A stretch of 64,000 bases of DNA from Candidatus Acidiferrales bacterium (GCA_963701055.1 OY969563.1:4980481-5044480); one strand, 5' to 3'. Positions 7,587-37,182 are shown, numbered from the stretch's first letter. Notes: a model not told the origin generated them from the sequence alone. Program-made: numbers and translations.

Positions 7587-7597
7587 GAGAGCGAGCC

Positions 7598-20500: not shown

Positions 20501-21382
20501 GACCTGCGCACCGAAAGCTTTGTAGGTCGCATTAGGAACTCCAGAGCTAGCTGGTTGCGTGAACGGATCGCGGGCCTCCTGCGCACTGTTCCGGTAATCG
20601 TAAAATCCCCCGCCGTGGACTTCGTTGCTGCCGGACTTTGTCTGGACGGTGACCAAGCCCGCGACCGCCTTGCCGAACTCAGCATCGTAATCTTGCAGCG
20701 TAATCTTGGTCTCCTGAATGGCATCAATGTTGGGGTTGACGACAATGATTCCCAAGATCGCGTCTTGATTGTCGGTGCCATCCAACATGAAGGACGTTCC
20801 GCTAAAGTGTTGTCCATCGACGAAAATCTGCTGCCCAGCCTGGGGATTTTCTGTGGCCGCGTGACTCCAGCCCACGAGCTTCTGCGTACCGGGCGTGAGC
20901 AATTCCAAGCTCGTGAAATTGCGATTGAGAATAGGCAAATCCGAAACGTACATCTGGTTAAATTCGTTCGACACATCCGCACGATCCGTCTGGAGAAGTG
21001 GGAGTTCCGTAGTCACTTCAACGGACTGGGTGACATCGCCAACTTGCAACTGCACGTCGATATGAGCGGAAGAATCGGCGCTAACCGGCACCGAGTCCAC
21101 GTCGTAAGACTTGAATCCCTTTGCTTCCACCTTGAGCTTGTAGGTGTCCGGGATTAAGTGCGTAACGTTATAGAAACCGCTCTCGTTAGTGGTCGTTTGA
21201 TCTGAAGTACCCTTGCTTACGGACGTCACAGTGACTTGCGCACCCACAACCGCCGCGCCTTGGGGATCGGTGACCGTGCCGATCATGCTGCCGTAAACGG
21301 CTTGACCTCGAGCTGAATTCGCGGACAGGACCCATAGAATCGACAGCAAAAAAATCCCTGCGAAAGTAGACGGCCGCTTCAT
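17597..21382 (-). CDS. TonB-dependent outer-membrane receptor with N-terminal CarboxypepD_reg-like domain
   Basis: 1261 aa. A signal peptide is followed by GSMIGTVTDPQGAAVVGAQVTVTSVSKGTSDQTTTNESGFYNVTHLIPDTYKLKVEAKGFKS (carboxypeptidase-regulatory-like Ig fold), then plug and beta-barrel-like sequence. The C-terminus LQFGLRVVF ends in Phe. Confidence 0.9.
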   Translation of the reverse strand: MKRPSTFAGIFLLSILWVLSANSARGQAVYGSMIGTVTDPQGAAVVGAQVTVTSVSKGTSDQTTTNESGFYNVTHLIPDTYKLKVEAKGFKSYDVDSVPVSADSSAHIDVQLQVGDVTQSVEVTTELPLLQTDRADVSNEFNQMYVSDLPILNRNFTSLELLTPGTQKLVGWSHAATENPQAGQQIFVDGQHFSGTSFMLDGTDNQDAILGIIVVNPNIDAIQETKITLQDYDAEFGKAVAGLVTVQTKSGSNEVHGGGFYDYRNSAQEARDPFTQPASSGVPNATYKAFGAQVGGPIIKDKLFFFGDYQGVRQLNGITNLLTTPTTEALQSCNPATNAASSSPGYCNLSQYAAAISSGGGLIYNPATGSSLTGAGRTPFCGPAGCATQPNWIPIGMLSPQASAVLAEFPAPNNGPGITNNFIGSGSGPYDQNAFDIRIDYNAPHGYQVFGRFSLDYFNLSGKGTLGALGGVGFGPGGLNGESNVHNYSLATGFDKAIGSNLLTDFRFGYFKYNPVTAYSDANTNPMTGFGIPGLNLGTSETGGLSSFFPTSGGNNNTASQSQGMPNFGDGLNVGRCNCPLIESEQQFQFVNNWTKIKGNHQIKFGADIRYAMNLRVPSDSNRTGVLNFDSDTTSLAGAGGLTLATFLLGDVSSFQRYASPVIDAAERQKRWFFYGEDTWRITPKLTFTYGLRWEIYFPETVNGKGNGGFANLTQGVIRVAGYGPYGTNGNISNTWKAFGPRLAIAYQYDPKTVIRLGYGRSFDLGVFGSNFGHAVTQNLPVLAAQSLEDSNLNPLATNNISPVFTLASGPPANLNPTTYFQNILSEISPQGTLPLLGPDGTAATHIRPTVQVLPTVDAWNATVQRQVTPSIAVEIAYVGNKGTHVLFPNGPAYNVNAPAVGNGTNFVSCPTPTTCALTSFVPFVPQANRRPYNENGVPSFTYPGYTVTQVISGVPTQVPLTCCAVDVSNYFGNNASTNYNSLQTKVEKRFTNGWQFTAHYTYSHSNAYDTTQGYYAIAPKLEYGPDQYNRDNVFLLTSVYQFPFGRGKRFFSGVSKAMDYVIGGWQMSNTLTWASGLPWTASIGECGEITDTGPCRPDLVNGKSFSTGPRTIKSGCGTGGECGLYWFTPVAPLAYNLTGVANGTDSCTLARPVSGAFSLPACGQVGNAGFDTFTGPRAFFSDLSLSKNFRITERVNAIFRFDAYNVFNHPVLGFNSNQGNNCVDCATNPSAGQITDIEGDASPGTPNGMRQLQFGLRVVF

Positions 21383-21829: not shown

Positions 21830-23104
21830 ATGCCCCCACTACGTGTCCCCATGATTGGCAGCCAGGAAACTCAGGCGCAGGTTGGCAGACTTCTAGTGAG
21901 TCATGCCTTGCATGGGTCCGAGTCTCTCTGCAAACTCCTGCGCTACCTGGCGCACTACGCCCTGGAACACCCCGGCACCTCTCCCAAGGAATATCAAATT
22001 GCGACGGAAGTATTCGGCCGGCCTGGGGATTTTGACCCGCACCAGGACTCCATGGTTCGAGTGCAAGTGGCGCGGCTTCGATCGAAGCTCGCCGAGTACT
22101 ATGCCTCGGAAGGGGCACGCGACACCCTTATTGTTGACGTGCCCAAAGGCAGCTACGCCCTTAATTTTCTGGAGCGCACGTCTCTGCCACCTCTGAATGG
22201 GCACGAACCGGCACCCAAGGACCCCACTCCGGTTCCCGCCGCGCAAGCTGTCTCGCCTTCTCGTTGGATCGCCGCGCTCGTTGTGCTGTCGATGATTTTG
22301 ACCGCCGCCCTAGCCATCGCCATTGACCGGCTGCTCCTTCGTCGCGTGGCGCAGGCTCATTCCGCGGAGGACATTTCGGTGGCTCCGGCGTCCGTGCGCA
22401 CTTTCTGGAATGGATTTCTCGGTGCCAACGAGCCTCCCTGGGTCGTGTTCAGCAACGCTTCCTTTGTTGGCCGCCCGGACACCGGCATGCGCTACTACGA
22501 TTCCAAGCGCGACGACAAGGCGCCCATATTCGACCACTACACAGGCGTCGGCGAGGTGCTCGCGGTGCATGCGTTGGACACAGTTTTTCGGCAGTTGCAG
22601 CGGGAACTGCGCGTCAAAAGGGGTAGTTTGTTCACGCTGGATGACGCTAAAAGCAACTACCTCATCTTTCTCGGCTCGCCCTCGGAGAATCTTACCTTGC
22701 TGGAAATCCCGACGACCCGGGATTTTTCCTTTCAGACGATTCATTGCTGCTCGCGAGAGGGAAACATTGAGATCGTCAATAACCATCCCGCAGCCGGCGA
22801 GGATAAGGAATACGTGGCCACCCCTTCGGATAAGCCACTCACCGAAGACTACGCAGTGATTGCCTTGGTTCGTGGGTTGAAATCCAGCCACTCCGTGTTG
22901 ATTCTTGCGGGAACCACGACTATCGGCACGCAAGCGGCCGCCGAATTCGTGTGTGACCAAACCTCTCTCAATGAGCTGCTGCGTCAGTTGGGAGTTTCCT
23001 CGGCCGCCGATCTCAAACCGTTTGAAGCCGTAATCCGCACGAAAGTAGTGCGCGGCGTGCCCGTAAACTCGGAGTTGGTTGCTTTGCACAAGCTCTCAAG
23101 CTGA
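21830..23104 (+). CDS. ToxR/CadC-like membrane-bound transcriptional regulator (N-terminal OmpR-type winged helix, one TM, periplasmic domain of unknown family)
   Basis: YQIATEVFGRPGDFDPHQDSMVRVQVARLRSKLAEYY matches the trans_reg_C recognition helix/wing. The TM is WIAALVVLSMILTAALAIAI, followed by ~250 aa of extracytoplasmic sequence. The start could also be the ATG at 21851. Confidence 0.7.
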   Translation: MPPLRVPMIGSQETQAQVGRLLVSHALHGSESLCKLLRYLAHYALEHPGTSPKEYQIATEVFGRPGDFDPHQDSMVRVQVARLRSKLAEYYASEGARDTLIVDVPKGSYALNFLERTSLPPLNGHEPAPKDPTPVPAAQAVSPSRWIAALVVLSMILTAALAIAIDRLLLRRVAQAHSAEDISVAPASVRTFWNGFLGANEPPWVVFSNASFVGRPDTGMRYYDSKRDDKAPIFDHYTGVGEVLAVHALDTVFRQLQRELRVKRGSLFTLDDAKSNYLIFLGSPSENLTLLEIPTTRDFSFQTIHCCSREGNIEIVNNHPAAGEDKEYVATPSDKPLTEDYAVIALVRGLKSSHSVLILAGTTTIGTQAAAEFVCDQTSLNELLRQLGVSSAADLKPFEAVIRTKVVRGVPVNSELVALHKLSS

Positions 23105-23117: not shown

Positions 23118-24926
23118 TCAATTGGCGGCTGGCATCGCCAGTCGAGGGTCGAGAGATGCGGCCTTCTGGTACTCTTCTTGCGCTTCTGCTTTATCTCCTT
23201 TTTGACTCAGAGCCTGTCCTAATTCAAAGTGCGCTAACGCAAATCCCGGCGAGGCCGCGACCGCCGAGCGAAATTGTGAAATGGCGCCGTCCACATCCCC
23301 CGCCTTCAAGAGCCGCTTGCCTGAGTTTGTGGCGAAGAGCGCGGCCTGCTCACTGTTCACTTTCTTGACGATTTCGGCGCCGAGTTTGCTTTCAGCCGCG
23401 GCGCCCTCTTTGTCGCCAAGCTGCCGCAGCACCGCGGCGAGTGTGGTGTGAGCACCGGCGAATTGCGGCTGTAATCGAATCGCCTCTTCCAACGCAGTGA
23501 CTGCTCCTTGCAGGTCGCCCTTTTGCTTCAAGACCGTTCCCAGTGTGTAGAAAGCTTCCGCATAATCCCGCTTGACGGCAGTTGCCGCGCGAAGCTCGGT
23601 CGCAGCTGCATCAAGATCGCCCTGTTGCCATAAAGTGACGCCCAGTGTGTAGTGTGCGTCCGCTTGCGCCGGATCCAGTTCGGACGCTTTCCGCAATTCC
23701 GCTTCTGCTTCGCCGAGCTTGTCCTGGAGCTTCAGTGTTAGGCCCAGGTTGTAATGCAAGGTTGCATCGCTCGGCGCCAACTTTAATGCCGCCTGGAATT
23801 CCTGGAGGGCCAAAGCAAACTCTGACATTTGCAGATAAGCAGCGCCGAGGTTGCCCAAATAGCTTGCAGCGTTTGGTTGCAGCCGGATGGCCGCCTGAAA
23901 TTCCGCGATCGCTCCCCTGGCGTCCCCGGTTTGCAGCAGCGCCAGGCCAAGATTGTTGCGCCGGTCCGCGCTGTCCGGCTGGAATTTCACGGCCTCACGA
24001 AATGCGTCCGTCGCTTTTTCCAGCTCCCCGCGCCCCTGAAGCAAAAGACCCAGGGCATTCTGCGCATCGGGATAGTCAGGCTTCAGACGCACACAGATTT
24101 GCAGTTCGCTGATCGCGCCATCTTGATCGCCGCGATTTTTTAGCACTAGCGCCCAATAGTAATGCGCGCCGGCCTCCAGGGAATTCTCCTGCACGGCCAT
24201 TTGCAGGTGGTAGGCCGCTTCGTCGAATGCCTTCTCGTTATAGCGCAGCACGCCCAGATGAAAATGCGCACTCGCAAAATCTGGCGCGACCTTCAAAGCC
24301 TCCTGGAACTGCTCCTCAGCCTCAGCCATTTGCGACTGTCGGACCAGCAGTGATCCGAGATCATCGTGTAATTCAGGCCGTGTTGGATCCAGCTCCACGG
24401 CACGGCGCATTTCCGCAGTGGCGTCGGCGGTCTTCCCCGAGGCATCCAGCGCGTGACCCAGGATGCGATGCGATTCCGCGTCGTTTGGTGAAATCGCTAT
24501 CGTGGATCGGGCCATGCGGATGGCCCCTGCGAAATCTCCTTTGGCCAGCAGTGTATTCGCCAGATTGCTGCGGGCTTGCACAAATTTCGGCTGGTATTTC
24601 AGTGCTTCATGAAACTGCTCGATGGCTGCGTCGTATTTTCCGCCGGTGAGCAGTACGAAACCCAATGCATTGTGGGCTTCGGGATTGTTTGGGAGGATCT
24701 TAATCACCTCTTCGAAGGACAACCGCGCGGCTGCGAGATCGTCGTTTTTCAGTGCTTCCATTCCCTTCGCGTAAATGGTCTCTGCCTGATGTGCGGCGTT
24801 CTCGCTAGACGCTGCCGCCTCTTGCCCAACCAGCGCTTGTGGCGAACCTGCGAACACCACCAGCGGGACGCCCAACATGCACAAGCGCCAGAACCTACCG
24901 ATGCATCTCTCGAAGCGTCCTCGCAA
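23118..24926 (-). CDS. Large secreted TPR repeat protein (~15 TPRs)
   Basis: 34-aa repeats with the A..Y..A......P pattern run throughout. The N-terminus is hydrophobic (MLGVPLVVFAGSPQALVGQ). Confidence 0.85.
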   Translation of the reverse strand: MRGRFERCIGRFWRLCMLGVPLVVFAGSPQALVGQEAAASSENAAHQAETIYAKGMEALKNDDLAAARLSFEEVIKILPNNPEAHNALGFVLLTGGKYDAAIEQFHEALKYQPKFVQARSNLANTLLAKGDFAGAIRMARSTIAISPNDAESHRILGHALDASGKTADATAEMRRAVELDPTRPELHDDLGSLLVRQSQMAEAEEQFQEALKVAPDFASAHFHLGVLRYNEKAFDEAAYHLQMAVQENSLEAGAHYYWALVLKNRGDQDGAISELQICVRLKPDYPDAQNALGLLLQGRGELEKATDAFREAVKFQPDSADRRNNLGLALLQTGDARGAIAEFQAAIRLQPNAASYLGNLGAAYLQMSEFALALQEFQAALKLAPSDATLHYNLGLTLKLQDKLGEAEAELRKASELDPAQADAHYTLGVTLWQQGDLDAAATELRAATAVKRDYAEAFYTLGTVLKQKGDLQGAVTALEEAIRLQPQFAGAHTTLAAVLRQLGDKEGAAAESKLGAEIVKKVNSEQAALFATNSGKRLLKAGDVDGAISQFRSAVAASPGFALAHFELGQALSQKGDKAEAQEEYQKAASLDPRLAMPAAN

Positions 24927-25033
24927 ACATTTGCTCCAGACACGTTCGATACTAGCATCACTTCACCAAGCTTCGGTCGAACGCAACCGCGCTACTTGAC
25001 CGCTTCACTGACGCCACATACGATGAGTTCCTT

Positions 25034-26782
25034 GTGAGTTCCCAAGTGAGGTTTTTCTCTTACAGTTCTCTCGCCTTCGGTCTGCTTGCTTTTCTAGCCG
25101 CTCCGCTCCTCTACTCGCCAACACGTTCGCAACAAACACCGAAAGCTGGGAAACGCATAGCCTACTTCACTGACGAAGCCGCAAAAGCAGGGCTTACCGC
25201 GAAGGATGTTTTCGGCGGCGTGGACACGAAGAAATACATAATCGAAACCACGGGCACAGGCGTGGCAATCTTCGACTATGACAACGATGGCTGGCCCGAT
25301 ATTTTCCTGGTGAACGGCACCACGCTGGACCAGGCCCATTCCTCTGCTCCCACCAATCATCTCTATCGCAATAATCACGATGGCACGTTCACGGATGTTA
25401 CGGAGAAAGCGGGTTTGCTGCACAGCGGCTGGGGACAGGGCGTGTGCGTCGGAGACTACGACAATGATGGCTTCGAGGATTTGTACGTCACGTACTACGG
25501 CAAGAATGTTTTGTATCACAACAATGGCGACGGCACTTTCACGGATGTGAGCGAAAAGGCTGGCGTGGCCGGTACTGGCAAAACATGGGGCTCCGGTTGC
25601 GCGTTCGTGGATTACGATCGCGATGGAAAACTCGATCTGCTCGTAGCCACGTATGTTGATTTCGACGTCGCCACCGCGCCGAAACCGGGCGAGCGGATCG
25701 ACTGTCTTTGGAAGGGCGTTCCGGTAATGTGCGGACCACGAGGGCTGCCGTGGAAATCGAACATGCTTTATCACAATCGAGGCGACGGGACATTTGAGGA
25801 CGTCACGAAAAAGGCGCACATCGACAAAACAAACGGCCATTACGGACTCAGCGTCTCAACGCTGGATTTCGACGATGACGGTTGGCCGGACATCTACGTT
25901 GCGTGCGACAGCACGTCCAGCATTCTTTATCGCAACAATCACGATGGCACGTTCACTGACGTCGCTGTGCTTGCGGGCGCCGCGTTCAATGAAGATGGTA
26001 TGGAACAGGCAGGTATGGGCACGACGGTCGGCGACTTCGACGGGGACGGCCGGCCGGACATTTTCAAAACAAATTTTTCAGACGACACGTCCACGCTGTA
26101 TCGGAACAACGGTGACGGCACTTTCAACGATGCGACGTTCGCGGCAGGTCTAGGGCTACACACGCAGTATTTGGGCTGGGGCACGATGTTTTTTGATTTC
26201 GATAATGATGGCTGGCCGGATCTGTTAGTGGTGAATGGTCACGTTTACCCGGAAGTGGATCCTGCACACCTTGGCAGCGATTATCAGGAGCCGCGCATCC
26301 TCTACCACAACAAAGGCAATGCCACGTTCGAAGATATTTCCGCGACGTCCGGCCCGGGAATTACCACGGCGAGTTCCTCGCGGGGCTTGGCGGTCGGCGA
26401 TCTTTGGAATGACGGCAGAATCTCGGCAGTGGTCAGCAACATGAACGCGCCCGCAAGCCTGCTCGTGAACCAAGCGCACTATGACAATCATTGGATTGCG
26501 GTACAGACAAGAGGGGTCAAGTCCAATCGTGATGGCATCGGTGCGAAGATTCGCGTGAAGGCCGGCAACAGAATACTCGTGGATGAAGTGCGAAGCGGTT
26601 CCAGCTACCTATCCAATAGCGATCGCCGAGTGCATTTCGGGTTGGGCCCGGTTGCAAGGATCGATTGGGTCGAGATTCGATGGCCGAGCGGCCTGAAGGA
26701 AGTTTTCGAGAATCAAACCGTCAACAAGATTTTGACGCTGACTGAGGGCCAAGGTAAACCTGCGCCGGGCCATATTCCATAG
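25034..26782 (+). CDS. CRTAC1-family protein (FG-GAP/VCBS beta-propeller + ASPIC/UnbV C-terminal domain), Sec signal
   Basis: Repeated D.DNDGW.D / NNGDGTFTDV calcium-loop motifs. The C-terminal SNRDGIGAKIRV...VRSGSSYLSNSD block is typical of UnbV/ASPIC. Confidence 0.85.
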   Translation: MSSQVRFFSYSSLAFGLLAFLAAPLLYSPTRSQQTPKAGKRIAYFTDEAAKAGLTAKDVFGGVDTKKYIIETTGTGVAIFDYDNDGWPDIFLVNGTTLDQAHSSAPTNHLYRNNHDGTFTDVTEKAGLLHSGWGQGVCVGDYDNDGFEDLYVTYYGKNVLYHNNGDGTFTDVSEKAGVAGTGKTWGSGCAFVDYDRDGKLDLLVATYVDFDVATAPKPGERIDCLWKGVPVMCGPRGLPWKSNMLYHNRGDGTFEDVTKKAHIDKTNGHYGLSVSTLDFDDDGWPDIYVACDSTSSILYRNNHDGTFTDVAVLAGAAFNEDGMEQAGMGTTVGDFDGDGRPDIFKTNFSDDTSTLYRNNGDGTFNDATFAAGLGLHTQYLGWGTMFFDFDNDGWPDLLVVNGHVYPEVDPAHLGSDYQEPRILYHNKGNATFEDISATSGPGITTASSSRGLAVGDLWNDGRISAVVSNMNAPASLLVNQAHYDNHWIAVQTRGVKSNRDGIGAKIRVKAGNRILVDEVRSGSSYLSNSDRRVHFGLGPVARIDWVEIRWPSGLKEVFENQTVNKILTLTEGQGKPAPGHIP

Positions 26783-26791
26783 AACGAACTG

Positions 26792-28648
26792 CTACGCTTT
26801 TCCGGTGCTCTTTTTTAGCGCACTGAGAGACACATTGCGCACGATGCCTTCCCCCTCTTTCACATAAATCAACTGGTTGGGCTGGATGTCCTTCAGAGTC
26901 TCCACCAAGCCGCTCGGCCAATGTAATTCCAGGACATCGATCTTTTGTGCTTTGCCAATCCCGAAATGCACACGCAGATCGTTCTGCGAAAAATATCCCC
27001 CGCCGCTGCGAACTTCGTCGATTTGTTGGTGCGGCTTCGTCCCTCCTGGCATCTGCACCACGCAGCGCAAGCGTGTACCAATTCCGCTGCGGTTGGACTT
27101 GGTGCCAATCGCGCGAACCTTGATCCAGTTGTCTTGCAGCGAAGAGTCGCATCGCACCAGTTGCGGGAAATCGTTGACGCAATTCACCACAAAGTCGATG
27201 TCGCCATCATTGTCGAAGTCGCCGAACGCACAGCCGCGCGAAGCACTGGGTTCAGAAATGCCAGGTCCGACGTTGAGCGATATATCCTCAAACTTGCGAT
27301 TTCGAAGATTGCGATATAGCAGTTTGCGTTGCGGATACCCCGCTTCCGTGCGCAACTGCTCCACTTCCGGGTAAACGTGGCCGTTGCAGATTAGAATGTC
27401 CGGCCAGCCATCGTTGTCGAAGTCAAAAAAACCGCATCCCCATCCGAGATATTGTGTGTGCATGCCGAGGCCGGCCTGGAAGGTCGTGTCTTCGAACGCG
27501 CCGGCTCCAAGATTGTGGTAGAGCGTCGGAGTATCGCCCGCAAAATTGGTTTTCACGATATCCAGATTCCCATCGAGATCGTAATCGCCCGCCGAAACCC
27601 CCATGCCTGCTTGTGGCTTTCCGTCGGCACTCAAAGCGCAACCCGCATCCAGGGCAACGTCCACAAATTTCCCGTTTTTCTGATTCTGATACAAAGCGCT
27701 AGCCGTGGAATCATCGGCGACAAAAATATCGGGCCACCCATCATTGTCGAAGTCCGCCGTTAAGACTCCCAGGCCGTACGTTCCATTTGCCTGCCAGAGT
27801 CCGGCCCCCTCGGACACGTCCACAAAAGTGCCGTCGCCATTGTTGTGGTACAGAATATTTTTGCCGCCATTCAAGCCGGGAGGACCGCAGGCCACCTTGA
27901 TGCCTTTGTACAGGCACGGGCCGGATTCCGGGACCGGTGCGGTGGCCAGATCCATATCGATGTAATTGGCCACAAAAAGATCCAGCTTGCCGTCGCGATC
28001 GTAATCGACGAAAGCGCAGCCCGTGTTCCAACGCTTGCCGTTGCCGGCGACACCGGATTTTTCACTGACATCCGTGAACGTGCCGTCGCCATTGTTGTGG
28101 TACAGCGCGTTCTTCCCGAAATACGCGACGAACAGGTCTTCATAGCCGTCATTGTCGTAATCGCCGATGCAAACACCTTGTCCCCAACCGGTGCGAGCCA
28201 AGCCCGCTTTCAAAGTGACATCTGTAAAGGTGCCATCGCGATTGTTCTTGAAAAGATGGTTGGTAGGTTCCTGGCCGGCCGGAAACCCCTCTAAACGTGT
28301 TCCATTTACGAGGAAGATGTCGAGCCAGCCGTCGTTGTCGTAATCGTAGAAGGCCACGCCGCAGCCCGTGGTTTCCAGAAGGTATTTGTTCTTGTGTTCG
28401 CCGCCAAAAATGGTTTTAGCATTCAGGCCAGCGGCCTTTGCGGTGTTGACGAAATTTACTCCGGGCGAGGTTCCTTCGATCCCGAGAGGGCTATCGTTTG
28501 CTTTTTGGCTGCGGATTCCCAGTCCGGTAATCGCTTGGGAAAGAATGGTTTCCAGGGACAACACAAGCGAGGTACGGCAGAGCGATTTCACAAAACTGCG
28601 GCGTGTTGATGGCAAGCCCGTACCCTTCCCCGGATGCGTTTTAGCCAA
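26792..28648 (-). CDS. CRTAC1-family protein (FG-GAP/VCBS + ASPIC/UnbV), twin-arginine signal
   Basis: Same repeat architecture as the 25034..26782 paralog. The N-terminus STRRSFVKSLCRTSLVLSL fits the Tat consensus. Confidence 0.85.
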   Translation of the reverse strand: MAKTHPGKGTGLPSTRRSFVKSLCRTSLVLSLETILSQAITGLGIRSQKANDSPLGIEGTSPGVNFVNTAKAAGLNAKTIFGGEHKNKYLLETTGCGVAFYDYDNDGWLDIFLVNGTRLEGFPAGQEPTNHLFKNNRDGTFTDVTLKAGLARTGWGQGVCIGDYDNDGYEDLFVAYFGKNALYHNNGDGTFTDVSEKSGVAGNGKRWNTGCAFVDYDRDGKLDLFVANYIDMDLATAPVPESGPCLYKGIKVACGPPGLNGGKNILYHNNGDGTFVDVSEGAGLWQANGTYGLGVLTADFDNDGWPDIFVADDSTASALYQNQKNGKFVDVALDAGCALSADGKPQAGMGVSAGDYDLDGNLDIVKTNFAGDTPTLYHNLGAGAFEDTTFQAGLGMHTQYLGWGCGFFDFDNDGWPDILICNGHVYPEVEQLRTEAGYPQRKLLYRNLRNRKFEDISLNVGPGISEPSASRGCAFGDFDNDGDIDFVVNCVNDFPQLVRCDSSLQDNWIKVRAIGTKSNRSGIGTRLRCVVQMPGGTKPHQQIDEVRSGGGYFSQNDLRVHFGIGKAQKIDVLELHWPSGLVETLKDIQPNQLIYVKEGEGIVRNVSLSALKKSTGKA

Positions 28649-28854
28649 GATCGGCGAGAGTCATTTCATATTGTCGGACATGCCAGCCACATTGCAAGTG
28701 AGTCGGCACGATGGGGATTTTTTTCGAACTGGTGGGTTATCCAGGCGCGAATAGAGTTTCCGTTGAGCACGCACGTATGTTACGTTTTGCTCGGCGGTGG
28801 GCTCAGGGGAACCCATTCGGGCGAATGCGGCATTTTCTGGTCAGGAGTGCCACC

Positions 28855-30555
28855 ATGAAAATTCGAGCGAATTTCTGGATGCTAGCGATTGCTTGTGCCC
28901 TGGCGTTCGCTGGACTTGCATCCGCGCAACCTCTCAAGGATGCCAGCGGACACGCTTGGTGGCAGCACGCTGTCTTTTACGAAGTGTATCCGCGTAGCTT
29001 CGCCGATTCGAACGGCGACGGAATTGGGGATCTGAATGGAATAACTTCCAAGCTGGACTATCTCAAAAAGCTCGGCGTGGACGCTATCTGGATCACCCCG
29101 TGCTTTCCGTCTCCCCAGATTGATTTTGGTTATGACGTTTCGGATTACGTCAATATCGACCCAATGTATGGCACGATTGCGGATTTTGATCACCTGGTCA
29201 GCGAGGCAAAGAAGCGCGATATTCGCGTGATTCTGGATTTTGTCGTCAACCACACATCGGATCAACACCCGTGGTTTATCGATTCGAAATCTTCGCGGAG
29301 CTCCGCGCACCGCGATTGGTATATCTGGCGCAACGGCAAGGGTCCCGGTCAACCTCCTAACAATTGGCTATCGACCTTTGGGCTGTCAGCGTGGAAATAC
29401 GATCCCGCCACGCAGCAGTATTACTATCACTATTTTTATCCCGAACAGCCGGATCTGAATTGGCGAAATCCCGCGGTGGAAAAGGCGATGTTTGACGTAA
29501 CGCGATTCTGGTACAAGCGCGGGGTTGCGGGCTTTCGACTCGATGCCGTGGATTCCCTGTTCGAAGACCCAAACCTTACCGATAATCCTGTGTTGCCCGG
29601 CACGGACAAATTTGGCCGCCCAAACATGCAGGAGAAATACAACAAGAAGCTGCCTGAAATGCACTTTGTTCTGCAGCGGCTAAGAAAAGTGGCTGACGAA
29701 TACGGAGCAGTGCTGATCGGAGAGACCTGGACCTCCCAGGTAAGAGAGTTGGAAGAGTATTACGGCGAAAACGGGAATGAGCTGCAACTGCCGATGGATT
29801 TGATGCTGACAAATCTGCCGCTATCTGCCCAGGCTTTCCGTGAGCATATTAACGCCGTGGACGCGGCCCGCGGCTGGCCGACGTATGTCATCACTAATCA
29901 CGACATCCGCCGCTCCTATTCCCGCTATGGCGACGGCATACATAACGACGACATCGCGAAGATGATGGCCGGCCTTTATCTCACGCTGCGCGGCACTCCG
30001 ATCATGTACTACGGCGAAGAAATCGGCATGGAGAATAATGATCCCACGAGGAAAGAAGATGTAAAGGATCCCATCGGCATTCTCGGCTGGCCACGCGAAA
30101 AGGGCCGCGATGGCGAGCGCACGCCGATGCAATGGAACGACGGACGAAACGCGGGGTTCACTACCGGAAAACCGTGGCTGCCGATTCCGCCGTCCGCAAA
30201 AACGCACAACGTTGAGACAGAAAGCAAGGATCCGCATTCTGTGCTCTTCTTCTACACACAAGTTCTCAATCTGCGGAAAATGGAACCGGCCTTGCTCGAG
30301 GGCGTCTATGTTGCGCTGAATCAATCCGATCAGAACGTGATCTCTTACCTGCGCAAGAGCAGCGCCGGGACAATTTTGGTGGTTCTGAATTTCTCCGCCA
30401 CAGAGCAGAATCCGACTTTTGATCTGAAGCAGCAAGGATTTGCCTCCGCGAAGGTGACAGGCATGTTGGAAAATGCAGCTGCGGTTCCGGACGGAGCGCT
30501 CAAAAGCATAAAACTCCAGCCCTATGGCGTTTTTATCGGCCGCATCACGGATTGA
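28855..30555 (+). CDS. Secreted GH13 alpha-glucosidase / oligo-1,6-glucosidase-type enzyme
   Basis: Track ORF 28711..30555. I prefer the ATG at 28855 (AGGAG 7 nt upstream; MKIRANFWMLAIACALAFAGLASA). GH13 blocks seen: YEVYPRSFADSNGDGIGDLNGI, DFVVNHTS, GFRLDAV, GETW, TNHD. Confidence 0.9.
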   Translation: MKIRANFWMLAIACALAFAGLASAQPLKDASGHAWWQHAVFYEVYPRSFADSNGDGIGDLNGITSKLDYLKKLGVDAIWITPCFPSPQIDFGYDVSDYVNIDPMYGTIADFDHLVSEAKKRDIRVILDFVVNHTSDQHPWFIDSKSSRSSAHRDWYIWRNGKGPGQPPNNWLSTFGLSAWKYDPATQQYYYHYFYPEQPDLNWRNPAVEKAMFDVTRFWYKRGVAGFRLDAVDSLFEDPNLTDNPVLPGTDKFGRPNMQEKYNKKLPEMHFVLQRLRKVADEYGAVLIGETWTSQVRELEEYYGENGNELQLPMDLMLTNLPLSAQAFREHINAVDAARGWPTYVITNHDIRRSYSRYGDGIHNDDIAKMMAGLYLTLRGTPIMYYGEEIGMENNDPTRKEDVKDPIGILGWPREKGRDGERTPMQWNDGRNAGFTTGKPWLPIPPSAKTHNVETESKDPHSVLFFYTQVLNLRKMEPALLEGVYVALNQSDQNVISYLRKSSAGTILVVLNFSATEQNPTFDLKQQGFASAKVTGMLENAAAVPDGALKSIKLQPYGVFIGRITD

Positions 30556-32405
30556 AGGCGCGTTACGGAAGGGAGACGAGCTTGGCGAACAAAGTACACT
30601 GCGCCGCCCGGCTCAGCGCCTACTTCCAGTTAATTTTACTGCTAAGTTTGGCGGTCGGGCCCCGTTGTATGGCACAGATGTCGTCCGCAACCCCCGGATC
30701 GCCAGCCGAAATTAACAAACAGGTCCAGGAAGCCTATCGAGCGGCACAAGCAGCGGCCATGAAGAATGATTTGGCGACCGCAGAGTCCCAACTCGAAAGG
30801 GTCGTTCACATGGCGCCTCAGCTCGAAGAAGGCCACAGCGCGTTGGGCGCCATTCTTCTTCAACTCGGCAAATTTCCGGAAGCGATCAAGGAATTGGAAC
30901 AGGCACTCGCGCTGAAGCCAAGCGACGTGTCCGCACAAACCAGTCTGGCTTGGGCGTATGAACAAACAGGCGCCTATCAAAAAGCGATTGTTTTGTTCCA
31001 GAAAGTGGAAAACGAAGCACGGGCAAAACCCGCGTCCGATCCAGGCCACAAGTTATCTCCGCCTTTTCTGGCTGCGTACGCACGCGCGCTTGCTGCCACA
31101 GGCCAGGTTCCAGCGGCGATTACCAAAATGAAGGCAGCCGTCGCCGAATCGCCTCAGAGCGCCGATCTCCATGATGCCTTGGGCTCGCTGCACGCGCAGG
31201 ACTTGGACTGGCCCTTGGCGGTCGCCGAATTCCAAAAAGCGATCGAACTGAATCGCCAGTTTGCCGCGGCACACCTGCATCTGGGCGCGGCACTGCTCGC
31301 GCAACAACACGTGGAGCCGGCTATTCAGGAGCTCACTCTGGCGTGCCAGTTGGCACCGGATAGCGCCGCTGCCGCCACGGAACTGGGCAAAGCGTATGCG
31401 GCGAACAAGGAAGACGCCAAAGCCATGGCGGAATTCCAGCGCGCGATCAAACTCGATCCCAATTCCATGAACGCAAAATATCAATTGGCCTTGGTGTTGG
31501 AAAGCAACGGCAATGAGGCGGACGCGCTTCCTTTACTGCGCCAGGTGGTTCAAGCACAACCGAAGAACCCGGAGGCGACAGCGAGCCTCGGATTGGCATT
31601 GCTCGTCGTAGGAAATGCAAAGGATGCAATTCCGTTTCTTGAACACGCGCTCAAGCAAAAGGCTGGCGATCCCGCGGCGTATGAGAATCTGGCCGCTGCG
31701 TACTTGCAAATGAACGAAGTCGATGAGGCCATCGGTGTACTGCGGTCCGGCCTTACCCACAATCCCGAGAACTACGAGCTTCATTACAATCTGGGACTCG
31801 CGCTCAAGTTGAAAGACGATAATGCTGCGGCCATCCCCGAACTGGAAACCGCGTCCAAGCTAAACCCTTCCGCTCATGAACCGCATTACACGCTCGGCAT
31901 CCTTTATATGCAGGACGGGCGCTATGACGACTCGGCACGCGAACTGACGGCGGCGATGAAACTGCATCCGGATAATGCGGATGGTTGGGCGACGCTTGGA
32001 AGCCTTTATGTAAAGATGAACAAACTTCCGGAAGCCGCCGACGCATTGAGGGAAGCGATCCGCAGAATGCCCGATCAGCCTGACCCGCACTTGTTACTCG
32101 CCTCGGTGCTTTCGCAGCAGGGCGACGCGACGGAGGCGGCCGCGGAACGCAAAAAAGGCGCCGATCTCGAGCGAGTGGCCATGCATCGTCAGCGCGCGAC
32201 CGTGTCTACAAATTCCGGGAACGCGCTGCTGCAAAAGGGCCAGGTGGCCGACGCCATCGAGCGCTTTCAGCAGGCTCTGAGCGAAGATCCCGACTACACC
32301 GAGGCTCATCGCGGCTTGGCAAAGGCGCTGGAACGCCAGGGAAAGATGACGGAGGCCGCGGCTGAAAGAGAAAAGGCGGAGCAACTGGAAAAGCCTCGAC
32401 CGTAA
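30552..32405 (+). CDS. Large secreted TPR repeat protein
   Basis: ~14 TPR-like repeats with a hydrophobic N-region (AYFQLILLLSLAVGPRCMAQ). The TTG start overlaps the GH13 stop, so the start is uncertain. Confidence 0.8.
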   Translation: MKARYGRETSLANKVHCAARLSAYFQLILLLSLAVGPRCMAQMSSATPGSPAEINKQVQEAYRAAQAAAMKNDLATAESQLERVVHMAPQLEEGHSALGAILLQLGKFPEAIKELEQALALKPSDVSAQTSLAWAYEQTGAYQKAIVLFQKVENEARAKPASDPGHKLSPPFLAAYARALAATGQVPAAITKMKAAVAESPQSADLHDALGSLHAQDLDWPLAVAEFQKAIELNRQFAAAHLHLGAALLAQQHVEPAIQELTLACQLAPDSAAAATELGKAYAANKEDAKAMAEFQRAIKLDPNSMNAKYQLALVLESNGNEADALPLLRQVVQAQPKNPEATASLGLALLVVGNAKDAIPFLEHALKQKAGDPAAYENLAAAYLQMNEVDEAIGVLRSGLTHNPENYELHYNLGLALKLKDDNAAAIPELETASKLNPSAHEPHYTLGILYMQDGRYDDSARELTAAMKLHPDNADGWATLGSLYVKMNKLPEAADALREAIRRMPDQPDPHLLLASVLSQQGDATEAAAERKKGADLERVAMHRQRATVSTNSGNALLQKGQVADAIERFQQALSEDPDYTEAHRGLAKALERQGKMTEAAAEREKAEQLEKPRP

Positions 32406-32533
32406 GTTTGGTTCCTTCGCTTGAGGATTCCCCACGAGGGCGCCATTTACAGGGCACTCGCGATGCGATATACAAGGTGCCTGGCACATCCCGCGCGAAG
32501 AGCTGTAATTAGTTTCGCTTGAGGTAGGGATTG

Positions 32534-34765
32534 ATGAAGCCTCGAACGGTCCGCATCCTCATGGTTGCCGCAAGTTTCGTGGCGAGCGTTGCATTGCTCA
32601 CCAGAAGTGTCCCCTCCACCACACACGCACAGTCCCCGCAAAACTCAAGCGACAAGGACTACTCGGCCGAAACAAGCAAGTCCTACAATTTTCTTTTCGG
32701 CAAGGACAACATTTCTCTGCCAGGGAATGCGTCCACCGTGGACAACCAGTTTATCCAGCCCGGCGCTTTTCCCCCGGCCGAATACTGTGGACATTGCCAC
32801 GAAGAGGCTTACCGGCAGTGGCGCCAGGCATTGCATTCCAACTCCTTCCGTACGCCGTTTTACCGGGCCAGCGTCAACATCCTGATTCGCACGAAGGGTA
32901 TCGAATTTTCGCGCCATTGCGATAGCTGCCACAATCCAATCGCGGTGGTCTCTGGAGCGCTGACGAAGGATGCGCGCGTGGACCGTTCGTTTGACGGAGA
33001 CGGACTTACTTGCACCGTCTGTCATTCGATCCAGAACTTAAAGTCGACTTCCGGCAATGGCGGCTACGTGCTGGGCGTTCCCGCCGTGATGGTGGATGAG
33101 AACGGCAAGCGCATTCCTGGCGAGGTTCCATTCGGGGACATCTTCGAACATCCCGAGCGCCACTCAAAGGCGGTGATGCAGTCGTTTTACCGCACACCGG
33201 AATTCTGCGCGGCCTGCCACAAGGCCAACTTGCCGAATCCCTTGAACGATTACAAATTCATCCGCGCTTTCACCGTTTACGACGAGTGGCAGAACTCCAA
33301 GTTCTCCCAGCGGAACCCGCTGACTTTTTACAAATCCGATTTCGTTAAATGCCAGAACTGTCACATGCCACGCGCTGCCACTACGCTCCATGACTATGGC
33401 GCGAAAAACGGCATGTTGGCATCGCACCGATGGCTCGCCGGTAATGCAGCTGTGCCTTTTTATTATGGATTCGAGGAGCAACTTCAGAAGACGATCGAGT
33501 TCTTGCAGTCCGGCAAGTTCCTTAACGTGGACATTTTCGCGCTGAAACGGAATGGTGAGGATCACCTGATCGCTCCATTGGGGTCAGTCCCCTTTCAGCT
33601 TGCGTCGAATGATGTTGTGGACGCGTACGTCGTGGTACAGAACAAAAACATCGGCCACTCACTGATTCCCGAAGTTCGCGACCTTTACGAAGCGTGGGTT
33701 GAGGTCACAGTCAAGGACGCCGCCGGACACGACATCTATCATAGCGGCTTCCTGGAGCCGGATGGCCTGCTGGACAAGCGTGCGCACAGTTTCACCAACC
33801 GTCCCGTAAATCTGTCCGGCGAGTTTGTGGATAATCACAAGGTTTGGACCATTCATTCCATGGCCTACGACAACTCGATTCAATCCGGGCGCTCAGCGCT
33901 AGTGCGCTATGAATTTCGTATTCCGCCGGACGCCAAGGGGCCTCTCAACATCACTGCGCAGGTCAACTATCGTCATCTCCGCCAGAGTTATCTGAATAAC
34001 GTCTTCGGCGGTGACCATCCACTGTATCCGGTCATCGAGATCGCTTCCCGCACACGCGAGTTGAATCTGGGCGTGAATCAGCCTTCGGCAGCCGCTGCCA
34101 ACGACAATGAAGACTGGATGCGATGGAACGATCTCGGCATCGGATTCCTCGATCAACTGCAATACTCCGACGCCGTTGACGCGTTCGAGCACGTCCTGAA
34201 GCTACGGCCCGATTACGACGACGGTTACGTAAACGTGGGCCTAACCTATATCGAATGGGAAAAATATTCCTTGGCGCGGCCCGCCTTGGAAAAAGCGCTG
34301 CAGTTGCATCCGGATTACGCTCGCGCGCTCTATTATCTCGCGCTTGTCGAACGCCGCGAGGCGCACCCCGAAGCGGAAGTTGCCGACCTGCAGAAGGTCG
34401 CGGAACAGTATCCACAATCGCGCGATGCCCGCCGCGAACTCGGCATTGCCTACTATCAACAGCACCGCACCGACGACGCCATGGCGCAATTTGAAGCATT
34501 GCAAGCCATCGATCCCGACGATCTTGCCGCGCATTACAATCTGGCTATCTTATATCGGCGCAAGGGTAGAAAGCCGGAGGCTGCGACGCAGGCCGCGTTA
34601 TACGCCACGAAGAGTGTCGACCCGGGCGCCCCGACATATTCGCTGGATTATTTGCGCAAGCATCCTGAAATCTCCACCGAGAGCGTGCCCTGGCACATGC
34701 ATACGGACTTGCAGTCTGGCGTCGCCGACGTCACCGCCCGGAACAACGGGGTTTGCCAGCATTAA
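32534..34765 (+). CDS. Pentaheme c-type cytochrome with central beta-rich region and C-terminal TPR domain
   Basis: Five CxxCH motifs: CGHCH, CDSCH, CTVCH, CAACH, CQNCH. The ATG is at 32534 (MKPRTVRILMVAASFVASVALL). TPRs occupy the last ~200 aa. Confidence 0.85.
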   Translation: MKPRTVRILMVAASFVASVALLTRSVPSTTHAQSPQNSSDKDYSAETSKSYNFLFGKDNISLPGNASTVDNQFIQPGAFPPAEYCGHCHEEAYRQWRQALHSNSFRTPFYRASVNILIRTKGIEFSRHCDSCHNPIAVVSGALTKDARVDRSFDGDGLTCTVCHSIQNLKSTSGNGGYVLGVPAVMVDENGKRIPGEVPFGDIFEHPERHSKAVMQSFYRTPEFCAACHKANLPNPLNDYKFIRAFTVYDEWQNSKFSQRNPLTFYKSDFVKCQNCHMPRAATTLHDYGAKNGMLASHRWLAGNAAVPFYYGFEEQLQKTIEFLQSGKFLNVDIFALKRNGEDHLIAPLGSVPFQLASNDVVDAYVVVQNKNIGHSLIPEVRDLYEAWVEVTVKDAAGHDIYHSGFLEPDGLLDKRAHSFTNRPVNLSGEFVDNHKVWTIHSMAYDNSIQSGRSALVRYEFRIPPDAKGPLNITAQVNYRHLRQSYLNNVFGGDHPLYPVIEIASRTRELNLGVNQPSAAAANDNEDWMRWNDLGIGFLDQLQYSDAVDAFEHVLKLRPDYDDGYVNVGLTYIEWEKYSLARPALEKALQLHPDYARALYYLALVERREAHPEAEVADLQKVAEQYPQSRDARRELGIAYYQQHRTDDAMAQFEALQAIDPDDLAAHYNLAILYRRKGRKPEAATQAALYATKSVDPGAPTYSLDYLRKHPEISTESVPWHMHTDLQSGVADVTARNNGVCQH

Positions 34766-34778
34766 CTGAGGAGGATTT

Positions 34779-36656
34779 TTGTCTCATTCAGATCGCCGCA
34801 AGTTTCTCCGCTCGCTGAGCCGCACGGCACTCGTTCTACCGTTCACGGATATTCTTTCCCTCGCCCTTCAGCAGCAAGAACCAACACCTCCCAAACCGAA
34901 GATTGGCCCCATCGAGCGGAATTACGACGCCAAGCCCGCTCCGCCTCCTCCGGGCCCCAAATCTCCGATAGAGGGCACGCCACTGGGCGTCAGCTTTGTG
35001 GATGTGGTGAAGGGATCGGGCCTCGACGTGGAAACCATCTACGGCGGCGTGGGCAAGAACAAATATTTATTAGAAACCACCGGCTGCGGCCTCGCTTTCT
35101 ACGATTATGACAACGACGGCTGGCTGGACGTATTTCTCGTCAATGGCTGGCGTTTGGAAGGGTTCGCGAAAGGCCGCGAACCGCATTGCCGATTATTCAA
35201 AAATAATCGCGACGGCACGTTCACCGATGTCAGTAAAGGTTCCGGGTTGGAGATTCGTAGTGGCTGGGGACAAGCCTGCTGCGTCGGTGACTACGATAAC
35301 GATGGCTATGACGATCTGTTCGTCACCTATTACGGCCAGAACGCTCTTTATCACAACAATGGCAATGGAACGTTCACCGACGTGACGGAACGTGCTGGAC
35401 TGATTCAGCCTGGGCCGAAAACGCGTTGGAATACGGGATGCACCTGGGTGGATTATGACCGTGACGGTCACCTCGATTTGTTTGTCGCAAATTATGTGGA
35501 CTTTGACATCAAGACTGCTCCTTTGCCCGAAGAGGGGCCATGCACGTACAAAGGAATCGTCGTCGCCTGCGGCCCTCCTGGGCTCTCCGGTACAAAAAAT
35601 ATTCTCTATCACAACGAAGGGAACGGAACTTTTGTGGATGTAAGCCAAAAAGCAGGGATATGGAATGCGATCGGCACGTACGGCCTCAGCGTTGCTGCGT
35701 CTGATCTGGACAACGATGGTTGGCCGGATATTTATGTGGCCAACGATTCCGCGCCCGCCACGCTTTATCTAAATCAGAAAGACGGCACCTTCAAGGATGT
35801 TGCCATTGAAAACGGAGCGGCGCTTTCTCCCGAAGCGAAGCCGCAGGCAGGGATGGGCGTTTCCATCGGCGACTACAACCGCGACGGGAATCTCGATATC
35901 GTCAAGACCAATTTCGCGGGCGATACGGATTCGCTGTACACAAATCTCGGTGATGCTGTCTTCGAAGACCACACTTATCCCAGTGGCCTCGGCGTGAACA
36001 CGCGGCTCCTCGGATGGGGTGTGGGTTTCTTCGATATGGACAATGACGGCTGGCTCGACATTCTTATGTCCAACGGCCATGTTTATCCGGAAGTCGACAA
36101 ATCTAAAGCCGATCTGAAATACGCCGAGCATAAATATCTCTATCGCAATCTGCGCAACGGCCGGTTTGAAGAAGTCACCAACCAGGGCGGGCCCGGAATC
36201 GTGGAAAGCGCGCCGGCTCGTGGTTGCGCCTTCGGCGACTACGACAACGATGGCGATCTGGACATCGCAGTGAATTGCATCAACTCTATTCCGCAGCTTT
36301 TGCGTTGCGATACAACGCTCGATCGCCATTGGATCAAGATCAAACTTGTCGGGATGAAATCGAATCGCACCGGAATTGGAAGCCGCGTCATCATTACGGC
36401 GACGACTCAGCCGGACGCCAAGAAGCCCTTGGTCCAAATGGATGAACTTCGCAGTGGTGGTAGCTACTTTTCGCAGAATGACATGCGCATGCACTTTGGG
36501 TTGGAGAAAGCCGCCAAGGTTGACATGGTGGAGATTCGCTGGCTCAGCGGTCAAATTGATCAACTGAAGGATCTCGACGTGAACCGCCTCTACGTCATTC
36601 AAGAGGGCGGCAAGATTCTTAAGGCAGAAACGCTGAAACCTGCGACGAAATCATAG
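34779..36656 (+). CDS. CRTAC1-family protein (FG-GAP/VCBS + ASPIC/UnbV), twin-arginine signal
   Basis: TTG start preceded by GAGGAGGA. SDRRKFLRSLSRTALVLPF fits the Tat consensus. Long identical runs with the 26792..28648 paralog (KNKYLLETTGCG.AFYDYDNDGWLD, LFKNNRDGTFTDV). Confidence 0.85.
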   Translation: MSHSDRRKFLRSLSRTALVLPFTDILSLALQQQEPTPPKPKIGPIERNYDAKPAPPPPGPKSPIEGTPLGVSFVDVVKGSGLDVETIYGGVGKNKYLLETTGCGLAFYDYDNDGWLDVFLVNGWRLEGFAKGREPHCRLFKNNRDGTFTDVSKGSGLEIRSGWGQACCVGDYDNDGYDDLFVTYYGQNALYHNNGNGTFTDVTERAGLIQPGPKTRWNTGCTWVDYDRDGHLDLFVANYVDFDIKTAPLPEEGPCTYKGIVVACGPPGLSGTKNILYHNEGNGTFVDVSQKAGIWNAIGTYGLSVAASDLDNDGWPDIYVANDSAPATLYLNQKDGTFKDVAIENGAALSPEAKPQAGMGVSIGDYNRDGNLDIVKTNFAGDTDSLYTNLGDAVFEDHTYPSGLGVNTRLLGWGVGFFDMDNDGWLDILMSNGHVYPEVDKSKADLKYAEHKYLYRNLRNGRFEEVTNQGGPGIVESAPARGCAFGDYDNDGDLDIAVNCINSIPQLLRCDTTLDRHWIKIKLVGMKSNRTGIGSRVIITATTQPDAKKPLVQMDELRSGGSYFSQNDMRMHFGLEKAAKVDMVEIRWLSGQIDQLKDLDVNRLYVIQEGGKILKAETLKPATKS

Positions 36657-36693
36657 CGGGTTGCGCTGGGACGAAGGAACGGCAAGAAAACAG

Positions 36694-37182
36694 ATGCGAA
36701 GCTCTCATGCACTGCTGCTCGGCCTGACGATGCTGGTCTCCACTCGCTGCCATGGACAAGCGAAGTGCCCATGGATCAATGAAACAACGGCGCACGGAAT
36801 TCTAGGCGGCGACGTTAGTATGGCTGTCAAATTGACGGAGCGGGGCGGGGGCGTCTGCGAATTTTCGAGATCAGTGGGGAAGACGAATCTCCAGTTGAGC
36901 ATTTCCGTGTACATCATGACCGACACTTTGGCGCAATTTTCGAAGTATTTGGAGCAATGTCCACCCAAAAGTGCTCTCCTTCGGGCCATCGGAAATGAGG
37001 CAGTGAGTTGCAGTTTGAGCAAGAGAGGCCAATATATCGAGAGAGTTGTGAGCAGAGTGCGCGATCAAGCCTTTATTGTCAGCGTAAGCTCGAGCGCGGC
37101 GGATGATCCGTCTATGACGGAGGAAATGCGCCGCAAGAAGGCCAATCTCGTCGCCGAGCAGGTCGCAGGAATTCTTTTCTAG
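36694..37182 (+). CDS. Small secreted hypothetical protein, last gene of the TPR/cytochrome/CRTAC1 operon
   Basis: Signal peptide MRSSHALLLGLTMLVSTRCHGQA. It starts 38 nt after the CRTAC1 stop. No motif recognised. Confidence 0.5.
   Translation: MRSSHALLLGLTMLVSTRCHGQAKCPWINETTAHGILGGDVSMAVKLTERGGGVCEFSRSVGKTNLQLSISVYIMTDTLAQFSKYLEQCPPKSALLRAIGNEAVSCSLSKRGQYIERVVSRVRDQAFIVSVSSSAADDPSMTEEMRRKKANLVAEQVAGILF

Follow-up and report, generated by a model that had tools for sequence, protein, structure and literature searches.

In a 64,000-nucleotide (nt) stretch of DNA from a Candidatus Acidiferrales bacterium (OY969563.1:4980481-5044480; hereafter the window, on which coordinates are counted), genes for a pentahaem cytochrome with a tetratricopeptide repeat (TPR) tail, for a CRTAC1-type FG-GAP propeller and for a small secreted protein follow one another on the same strand. 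Our preferred reading, which we regard as reasonably probable, is that the three proteins constitute a conserved functional module and act as a single periplasmic redox complex. Gene content of the module region (23118-37182) was determined from six-frame open reading frames (ORFs) and Pfam. By Pfam matches and the count of CXXCH motifs, it bears out what an earlier, sequence-only reading of the window had listed: three CRTAC1 proteins, two TPR proteins of about 600 amino acids (aa), a pentahaem-TPR cytochrome and a small secreted protein.

Support for the module comes first from the conservation of gene linkage. A scan with one genome per species gave 80 loci, all from Terriglobia and phylogenetically related, in which the module genes were located by tblastn of the window proteins. 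A same-strand CRTAC1 gene adjoined the cytochrome gene in 69 of the 80 loci, and in 62 of the 64 that extended at least 2.5 kb on both sides. Only 3 CRTAC1 genes were found more than 5 kb from the cytochrome in 528 kb, which puts chance adjacency at about 1%. ORF clustering of the loci returned just four recurrent families, namely the cytochrome, CRTAC1, the TPR proteins and the small protein. Two of the carriers, Tunturiibacter lichenicola MP8S11 and T. gelidiferens X5P2 (both of type B, see below), are isolates.

The genes occur in two orders, cytochrome-CRTAC1-small protein (type A, 43 loci) and CRTAC1-cytochrome-small protein (type B, 26 loci). The type A cytochromes form one clade (41/42), and the type B CRTAC1 proteins are only ~45% identical to any window paralog. 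Median gaps across the loci were 25 nt between cytochrome and CRTAC1, 45 nt between CRTAC1 and small protein, and 200 nt between TPR gene and cytochrome. In the window the corresponding distances are 13, 4 to 37 and 125 nt, a correction to the range of 8 to 125 nt given in the sequence-only reading. The short gaps among the last three genes mark these as a tight core, from which the TPR gene may be transcriptionally separate. As they are co-directional, closely spaced and conserved across genomes, the three core genes probably form an operon. In some genomes a type B module is accompanied by a second set of module genes: in L080 (1462-13282) by complete type A genes for TPR protein, cytochrome and CRTAC1, encoded on the other strand, and in L060 (3753-12611) only by a type A-like CRTAC1 gene and a TPR gene, with no second cytochrome seen.

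The linkage extends well beyond close relatives. A metagenome scan seeded with a membrane-anchored, TPR-bearing clade of cytochromes yielded 80 further loci, whose cytochromes are 28-32% identical to that of the window. CRTAC1 was adjacent in 48 of the 51 loci with downstream room and in 39 of the 41 that were fully informative, often as 2-5 genes in tandem; in one locus the row also includes a homolog of the one-haem/Cu-like TPR protein of the window. These cytochromes, one of them from a metagenome-assembled genome of Xanthomonadales, fall into 14 clusters at 60% identity, 10 with CRTAC1 adjacent and 12 with CRTAC1 within 2.5 kb. The module thus recurs, as anticipated in the sequence-only reading, and the result named there as a refutation, that CRTAC1 genes would not be enriched beside multihaem-TPR genes elsewhere, was decisively contradicted. 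In addition, the small-protein domain is fused behind the cytochrome's TPR domain in a 903-aa protein (P0122/P0325; BLASTP E 2e-14), the gene for which (L168 8001-10712) lies directly 3' of a 702-aa CRTAC1 gene.

Adjacency might also reflect inherited synteny without functional coupling. All 80 genome loci come from one class, and many of the distant loci belong to one 60% cluster, as such an explanation would have it. We nevertheless find it hardly credible, because the trio stays together while the flanking genes differ completely, both gene orders occur, the linkage persists at ~30% cytochrome identity and a fusion protein exists. Thus, loci whose cytochromes are 79-80% identical to that of the window and lie between foreign flanks (Fur and KatG in one case, a GGDEF protein and an RND pump in the other) have kept the order TPR-cytochrome-CRTAC1-small protein, without a GH13 gene.

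The cytochrome starts with a predicted Sec signal peptide and contains exactly five CXXCH motifs (aa 86, 130, 161, 226 and 274), followed by an immunoglobulin (Ig)-like beta-sandwich and the TPR domain. A test for NrfA gave no match to PF02335 (Cytochrom_C552) and no CXXCK, all five motifs being CXXCH. A profile of the haem and Ig region matched Thermochromatium tepidum c552 (5ZE8) and MccSep (E 7.5e-5); the collinear matches cover haem motifs 1, 3 and 5 as well as the beta-sandwich with its GH(S)xP loop. The best solved relative is c552, with an E value of 1.6e-14 over haems 1-3 and a weaker, still collinear match over haem 5 and the beta-sandwich; it has 435 aa and, unlike the window cytochrome, no TPR tail. 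To our knowledge, the physiological role of c552 is not established, and we know of no CRTAC1 context for it.

The second relative is of interest for its activity. MccSep of Geobacter sulfurreducens (GSU2937-2936; PDB 9wt8/9wt9) is a periplasmic polysulfide reductase whose active site consists of one haem and a loop of the Ig-like domain (bioRxiv 10.1101/2025.11.18.688581). The two proteins have in common a periplasmic location (predicted in our case) and five CXXCH haems with an Ig-like domain C-terminal to them, the GHSxP loops being aligned. In contrast, the catalytic selenocysteine or cysteine of MccSep (U325) and its distal Cys ligand are not present in the window cytochrome, and the TPR domain and His-containing tail of the latter are not found in MccSep, a homotetramer for which no CRTAC1 partner is reported. 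Judging from the profile matches, the cytochrome is a distant member of a class of pentahaem proteins with an Ig-like domain that also comprises c552 and MccSep. Since this class includes a real enzyme, the cytochrome may itself be catalytic.

The haem and Ig family is large, with 3,243 clusters at E <= 0.001 and 505 at E <= 1e-30 (50% identity clustering), and full-length matches reach down to 28% identity. The five haem motifs are kept across the family alignments, with CX4CH as the first motif in some members. Variants include TPR-less forms and forms with an N-terminal four-helix membrane domain; in P0155, P0160, P0175 and P0156 (L160 3945-7022), this domain comprises about four membrane helices with conserved His, and in one TPR-less membrane-anchored member it gave a sub-threshold match to prokaryotic cytochrome b561 (24.4 bits against a cut-off of 30.1). 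AlphaFold2 modelled the beta-sandwich (aa ~331-520) and the TPR domain (aa 528-695) of the window cytochrome with confidence. A fold search with the full model returned TPR structures only, because the haem part was poorly modelled. The TPR domain is followed by a conserved tail, YLRKHPEISTESVPWHMH (aa 706-724), which reads [FY]LR.HP..S.ES.PWH.H in Terriglobia and ..DN.E.Q.IH.H in the distant clade (loci L007-L167); the tail histidines are found as PWH.H in the former and as IH.H in most distant members. The haem and Ig alignment has four invariant His residues outside the motifs, for five haems, and the conserved His of the tail could be the fifth haem ligand, or else belong to a partner-binding or metal site.

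All three CRTAC1 paralogs matched both FG-GAP_3 (E 1e-54 to 1e-61) and UnbV_ASPIC (65.7-73.7 bits against a cut-off of 23.4; E 1e-18 to 1e-20) in Pfam, and the module paralog, CRT_34779, has seven FG-GAP propeller blades and, C-terminal to them, the UnbV_ASPIC domain. The solved CRTAC1 structure (9etn) was matched at E 2.7e-14 with a single sequence and at E 3.9e-37 with a profile; the only other sequence relatives in the PDB were integrin alpha chains. The window paralogs thus share the FG-GAP propeller, the DxDxDG loops and UnbV_ASPIC with vertebrate CRTAC1/ASPIC and the PF07593 family. In contrast to the vertebrate protein, the bacterial ones carry Sec, lipoprotein or Tat signals, are linked to cytochrome genes, and have extra Cys residues in the Tat clades. 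They also lack the epidermal growth factor (EGF)-like domain, a feature of vertebrate CRTAC1 and not of the bacterial family: no EGF family was among the Pfam matches.

CRT_26792 and CRT_34779 are 59.8% identical in local and 61.8% in global alignment (68.5% at the DNA level). The long identical runs noted in the sequence-only reading are present (the longest have 15, 13, 12 and 12 aa), but the identity falls short of the two-thirds estimated there. CRT_25034 is 51-55% identical to either of the others. In a neighbour-joining tree, the three paralogs belong to three separate ortholog clades, with the CRT_26792 clade as sister to the slowly evolving CRT_34779 clade, indicating that the duplications are older than the sampled Terriglobia lineages. 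The recent local duplication that had been suggested is therefore ruled out by the tree. CRT_26792 does not lie beside a cytochrome gene in the window.

The sequence-only reading had assigned the roles differently, with the cytochrome as a mere carrier and CRTAC1 as the terminal catalytic redox enzyme, a view that we think possible but doubtful. In its favor, CRTAC1 orthologs are better conserved than any other component of the module, with a median identity of 83%, compared with 71% for the cytochrome, 52% for the TPR protein and 39% for the small protein. Moreover, CRT_34779 has a predicted twin-arginine (Tat) signal, RRKFLRSLSRTALVLPF, with the motif RRKFLRS, and the Tat motif RRxF[LI]RSLSRTALVLPF is conserved in 41 of the 43 type A orthologs, the clade linked to the cytochrome. 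In both Tat clades, those of 34779 and 26792, blades 1, 2, 3 and 7 share a Cys at an equivalent position of the repeat (C103, C168, C221 and C483), four residues ahead of the first Asp of the calcium loop. As in integrin propellers, this position would be in the innermost strand. The 34779 clade further has an invariant Met in blade 5, C137, C510, a vicinal C167-C168 pair and the clade-specific H451. Such a pattern would be in keeping with the insertion of a cofactor before export, in the cytoplasm. The residues may constitute a metal site that surrounds the axis of the propeller, or the cysteines may be buried thiols tolerated owing to cytoplasmic folding.

However, the type B and distant clades, which carry Sec or lipobox signals, are linked to the cytochrome equally tightly and yet have Ala, Ser or Pro at the repeat position. 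Across 114 cytochrome-linked and window CRTAC1 sequences, conservation extends to seven Dx[DN]xDG-type calcium loops, one disulfide-like Cys pair (C255/C264), a single His (H434), R481, M359, W588 and E609, and the alignment revealed no His/Cys cluster or redox-cofactor signature common to all linked clades. The sequence relatives of CRTAC1 in the PDB, human CRTAC1 and integrin alpha chains, do not favor a terminal enzyme, and it is the cytochrome that shows an enzyme-class architecture. The presence of equally linked clades without the cysteines thus argues against CRTAC1 as the terminal enzyme as a general rule; in the Tat clade, it may have this role.

Periplasmic enzymes that combine a beta-propeller with c-type haem are well known, such as cd1 nitrite reductase, the quinohaemoprotein dehydrogenases, and NosZ with its cytochrome donor; clade I NosZ is exported by the Tat pathway. 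They follow the same design principle but have no sequence relationship to CRTAC1, and their propellers carry d1 haem, pyrroloquinoline quinone or copper centres, for which CRTAC1 has no such binding signature. A bolder proposal, which we rate as fairly unlikely, is that CRTAC1 propellers belong as genuine subunits to a novel class of multihaem oxidoreductases of the periplasm, widespread in soil bacteria. In the Tat clade, the four Cys and the Met, located on the innermost strands about the propeller axis, would bind a metal or cluster, and electrons would pass between this site and the cytochrome.

A link between CRTAC1 and haem protein genes has been mentioned before, in passing, in the one relevant paper that our full-text literature search retrieved; in the searched literature the module itself appears to be unreported. 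That paper describes a CRTAC1-family gene between genes for hydrazine synthase (HZS)-like haem proteins in Planctomycetota, Syntrophobacter and Paludibaculum (PMC12758564). Such a context lends independent support to the module, and it also speaks for CRTAC1 as the catalytic partner. The HZS-like clusters of non-anammox bacteria, e.g., that of the acidobacterium Paludibaculum fermentans, resemble the module in having CRTAC1 between haem protein genes, some with cytochrome c554 domains. They differ from it in that the haem proteins are homologs of HZS alpha and beta-gamma with propellers of their own, and in that they have neither the pentahaem-Ig-TPR cytochrome nor the small protein (PMC12758564).

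The third member of the core, the small protein, has 227 homologs, all annotated as hypothetical and none in a Pfam family; a match to DUF6599 was obtained at E 0.18 only and disregarded. Five Cys are invariant, the first of them in a lipobox-like place after a hydrophobic signal, as is the C-terminus, AEQVAGILF. AlphaFold2 predicted a confident alpha/beta fold (predicted local distance difference test score, 81). A fold search with this model gave no PDB match at E 0.001, and weak matches to LpqN, TiME and lipocalin were not used. As a search of the distant loci for the C-terminal motif AG[ILS]LF detected none, the small protein may be confined to Terriglobia-like clades or have diverged past recognition.

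All TPR parts gave generic matches to CcmH/CycH-type TPR models. This fits a quite different explanation, in which TPR proteins and CRTAC1 serve envelope organisation, adhesion, the matrix, or the maturation or placement of the cytochrome rather than a redox enzyme; in one version the TPR protein would be an NrfG-like chaperone, in another the set would ensure surface display for extracellular electron transfer. We consider it decidedly unlikely. Vertebrate CRTAC1 and integrin propellers are indeed binding proteins and not enzymes, outer-membrane barrel genes occur near the module in 15 of the 80 Terriglobia loci, and the small protein weakly resembles envelope lipoproteins, though not significantly. 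However, one would hardly expect a protein that served maturation alone to surpass all other components in conservation, or to be found in 2-5 tandem copies beside one cytochrome, and no cytochrome c maturation (Ccm) or secretion genes were recurrent in the Terriglobia loci.

Returning to the redox complex, we infer its formation, the flow of electrons and the nature of its catalytic subunit from the adjacency, architecture, fusion and signal types described above. A Sec-exported cytochrome, a CRTAC1 protein with a Tat signal (in this clade) and a small, Cys-rich, possibly lipid-anchored protein would meet in the periplasm. By analogy with the c552/MccSep class, the cytochrome would be the redox-active and possibly the catalytic subunit, and its TPR domain a docking device for partners. 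TPR domains are known to recognize peptides in NrfG, PEX5 and Hop, the basis of our docking analogy; the best candidate for a TPR ligand would be the invariant C-terminal peptide of the small protein. CRTAC1 would be an obligate partner, with a role in binding or presenting the substrate or in providing a second site. In distant members, the four-helix membrane domain would tie the module to the membrane, perhaps to quinol. The relationship to MccSep, together with neighboring genes for DsbA-like and redoxin proteins, gives a weak hint of sulfur or thiol chemistry.

Several observations weigh against such a complex. As the loci share ancestry, raw adjacency counts overstate independence. Five relatives of the cytochrome, with 46-57% identity, have no CRTAC1 neighbor (two precede multi-domain DsbA-like proteins and one a 124-aa ORF), showing that the pairing is clade-dependent rather than universal. 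The haem part of the cytochrome was modelled with low confidence, and the placement of the Ig domain relative to the haems could not be derived, such that no active site is visible. The residue corresponding to U325 is Thr in the distant clade (GHxFPGGT) and variably Gln, Leu or Val in the window clade; the cytochrome alignment has no invariant Cys outside the haem motifs, and a C239-type distal ligand of haem 2 is absent. The C-termini of CRTAC1 vary between clades, which makes TPR docking of CRTAC1 through a C-terminal peptide unlikely. Finally, the run search listed no RNA runs that contain the window sequence or the two isolate loci.

Bacterial members of the ASPIC/UnbV (CRTAC1) family are very numerous, and its human homolog is a cartilage protein, but the family has no established bacterial function; the pentahaem-Ig-TPR cytochromes form a large family annotated only as "tetratricopeptide repeat protein". 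Their pairing gives the CRTAC1 family a first testable link to redox chemistry. If the redox-subunit reading is true, it would represent the first biochemical function for the CRTAC1/ASPIC-UnbV superfamily, and an oxidoreductase would be an unrecognised periplasmic redox activity in dominant heterotrophs of acidic soils and peat. The deep linkage that has survived rearrangement, the fusion and the existence of cultured carriers (Tunturiibacter) make both families experimentally approachable together.

Table 1. Features of the module region and of the neighboring cluster in the window
Feature	Position	Strand	Evidence and remarks
All-TPR protein	23118-24926	-	Pfam; probable start ATG 24878
CRTAC1 paralog CRT_25034, 582 aa, Sec-type signal	25034-26782	+	FG-GAP_3 + UnbV_ASPIC (Pfam)
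CRTAC1 paralog CRT_26792, 618 aa, Tat-like RRSFVKS	26792-28648	-	FG-GAP_3 + UnbV_ASPIC (Pfam)
GH13 alpha-amylase-family gene	28711-30555	+	Pfam
All-TPR secreted protein, 607 aa	30582-32405	+	Pfam; ORF opens at TTG 30552
TPR-cytochrome intergenic region	32406-32533	+	conserved TATA-containing stretch
Pentahaem cytochrome with TPR tail, 743 aa from ATG	32534-34765	+	Cytochrome_C554-like + TPR (Pfam); ORF opens at TTG 32531
CXXCH motif 1	32786-32800	+
CXXCH motif 2	32918-32932	+
CXXCH motif 3	33011-33025	+
CXXCH motif 4	33206-33220	+
CXXCH motif 5	33350-33364	+
Ig-like beta-sandwich of cytochrome	~33521-34090	+
TPR domain of cytochrome	~34112-34615	+
Conserved tail of cytochrome	~34646-34702	+
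CRTAC1-type propeller CRT_34779, 625 aa, type A ortholog	34779-36656	+	FG-GAP_3 + UnbV_ASPIC (Pfam)
Twin-arginine signal of CRT_34779	~34794-34868	+	predicted export
UnbV_ASPIC domain of CRT_34779	~36372-36593	+
Small secreted protein, 162 aa from ATG 36694	36694-37182	+	no Pfam family; 173-aa ORF = 36661-37182
TonB-dependent-type outer-membrane barrel	17597-21382	-	first in transcription order
Redoxin-like protein	16879-17511	-	second in transcription order
One-haem + weak Cu2_monoox_C-like + TPR protein	15074-16903	-	third in transcription order
Heptahaem + TPR protein	13364-15058	-	fourth in transcription order
TPR protein	12270-13376	-	fifth in transcription order

The sequence-only reading had let the operon start at the GH13 gene, whose stop would overlap the start of the TPR gene. 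GH13 was found in only few related loci, and the flanks of the module are wholly different from one locus to another; synteny thus rules it out as first operon gene or module member. For the TPR gene, TTG 30582 behind a Shine-Dalgarno-like AAGGGAG is the more likely start, and with this start the gene does not overlap the GH13 stop but lies 3' of it. A relative with 95% identity, which keeps the gene order of the window, is annotated with a TPR start 28 nt past the GH13 stop, giving a 607-aa protein, and with a 162-aa small protein.

The two long TPR proteins of the module region (23118 and 30582) are 35% identical over their full length. The TPR gene represented by 30582 is located 5' of the cytochrome in about half of the type A loci; in type A loci other than that of the window, genes for relatives of the 23118-24926 protein often converge with that for the small protein. 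Alignment of 22 TPR-cytochrome intergenic regions, with a median length of ~200 nt, revealed a short conserved TATA-containing stretch. The cytochrome gene may have an internal promoter of its own, for which this possible -10 box is a hint only. A promoter and terminator scan of 22.5-38.5 kb was uninformative, the counts being equal to the shuffled level.

Part of the neighboring cluster at 12270-21382 (12.3-17.5 kb) had been described as a copper operon with the same logic, in which a PHM-like enzyme takes the place of CRTAC1. Its TPR and heptahaem-TPR genes are present as stated. The PHM-like label is unconfirmed, as the 15074-16903 protein matched only Cu2_monoox_C, below the cut-off (20.2 bits against 23), and a PDB sequence search with it gave TPR matches only, with no relative for the N-terminal 440 aa. 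No homology was detectable between the pentahaem and heptahaem proteins outside their TPR tails; as the haem domains are unrelated, the common logic is an analogy of domain architecture only. Homologs of parts of this cluster do occur beside the pentahaem module in four loci (L010, L026, L082 and L093). In L026, a Cu-TPR homolog is followed after a 15-nt gap by a CRT_26792 ortholog, and in L093 the pentahaem cytochrome, CRTAC1 genes and a Cu-TPR homolog stand in one row. The idea of interchangeable partners of TPR-tailed redox proteins finds some support in these rows and in the mid-distance cytochrome clade followed by DsbA-like proteins.

Two such cytochromes with 51-54% identity (P0285 and P0302; L171 8298-10055) precede proteins with two or three DsbA/Thioredoxin_4 domains. 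Several of the DsbA-linked cytochrome contexts are also divergent from genes for giant Big_1/CarboxypepD_reg proteins.

As to the window at large, the nearest proteins carry the names Candidatus Acidiferrum, Sulfotelmatobacter, Korobacteraceae and Terriglobales, and the DNA sequencing runs that contain the window sequence are soil metagenomes. Base composition is uniform over the module region. Scans of the window for tRNA genes and Rfam families detected no element, and NCBIfam models matched neither the CRTAC1 genes nor the small protein, giving generic TPR matches only elsewhere. The rest of the window encodes a number of sugar-related proteins, consistent with a saccharolytic Terriglobia heterotroph. 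Apart from GH13, these genes are dense at 1498-12249 and 39597-41694 and code for a GH29 fucosidase, an MFS transporter, a GH27 alpha-galactosidase, a trehalase, GalT and an epimerase. Two large ORFs (43255-44673 and 45555-47204) have no Pfam family. Beside the cluster, a 424-aa protein encoded at 21830-23104 (+) shows a weak winged-helix Trans_reg_C match, at its N terminus only, and is a possible regulator.

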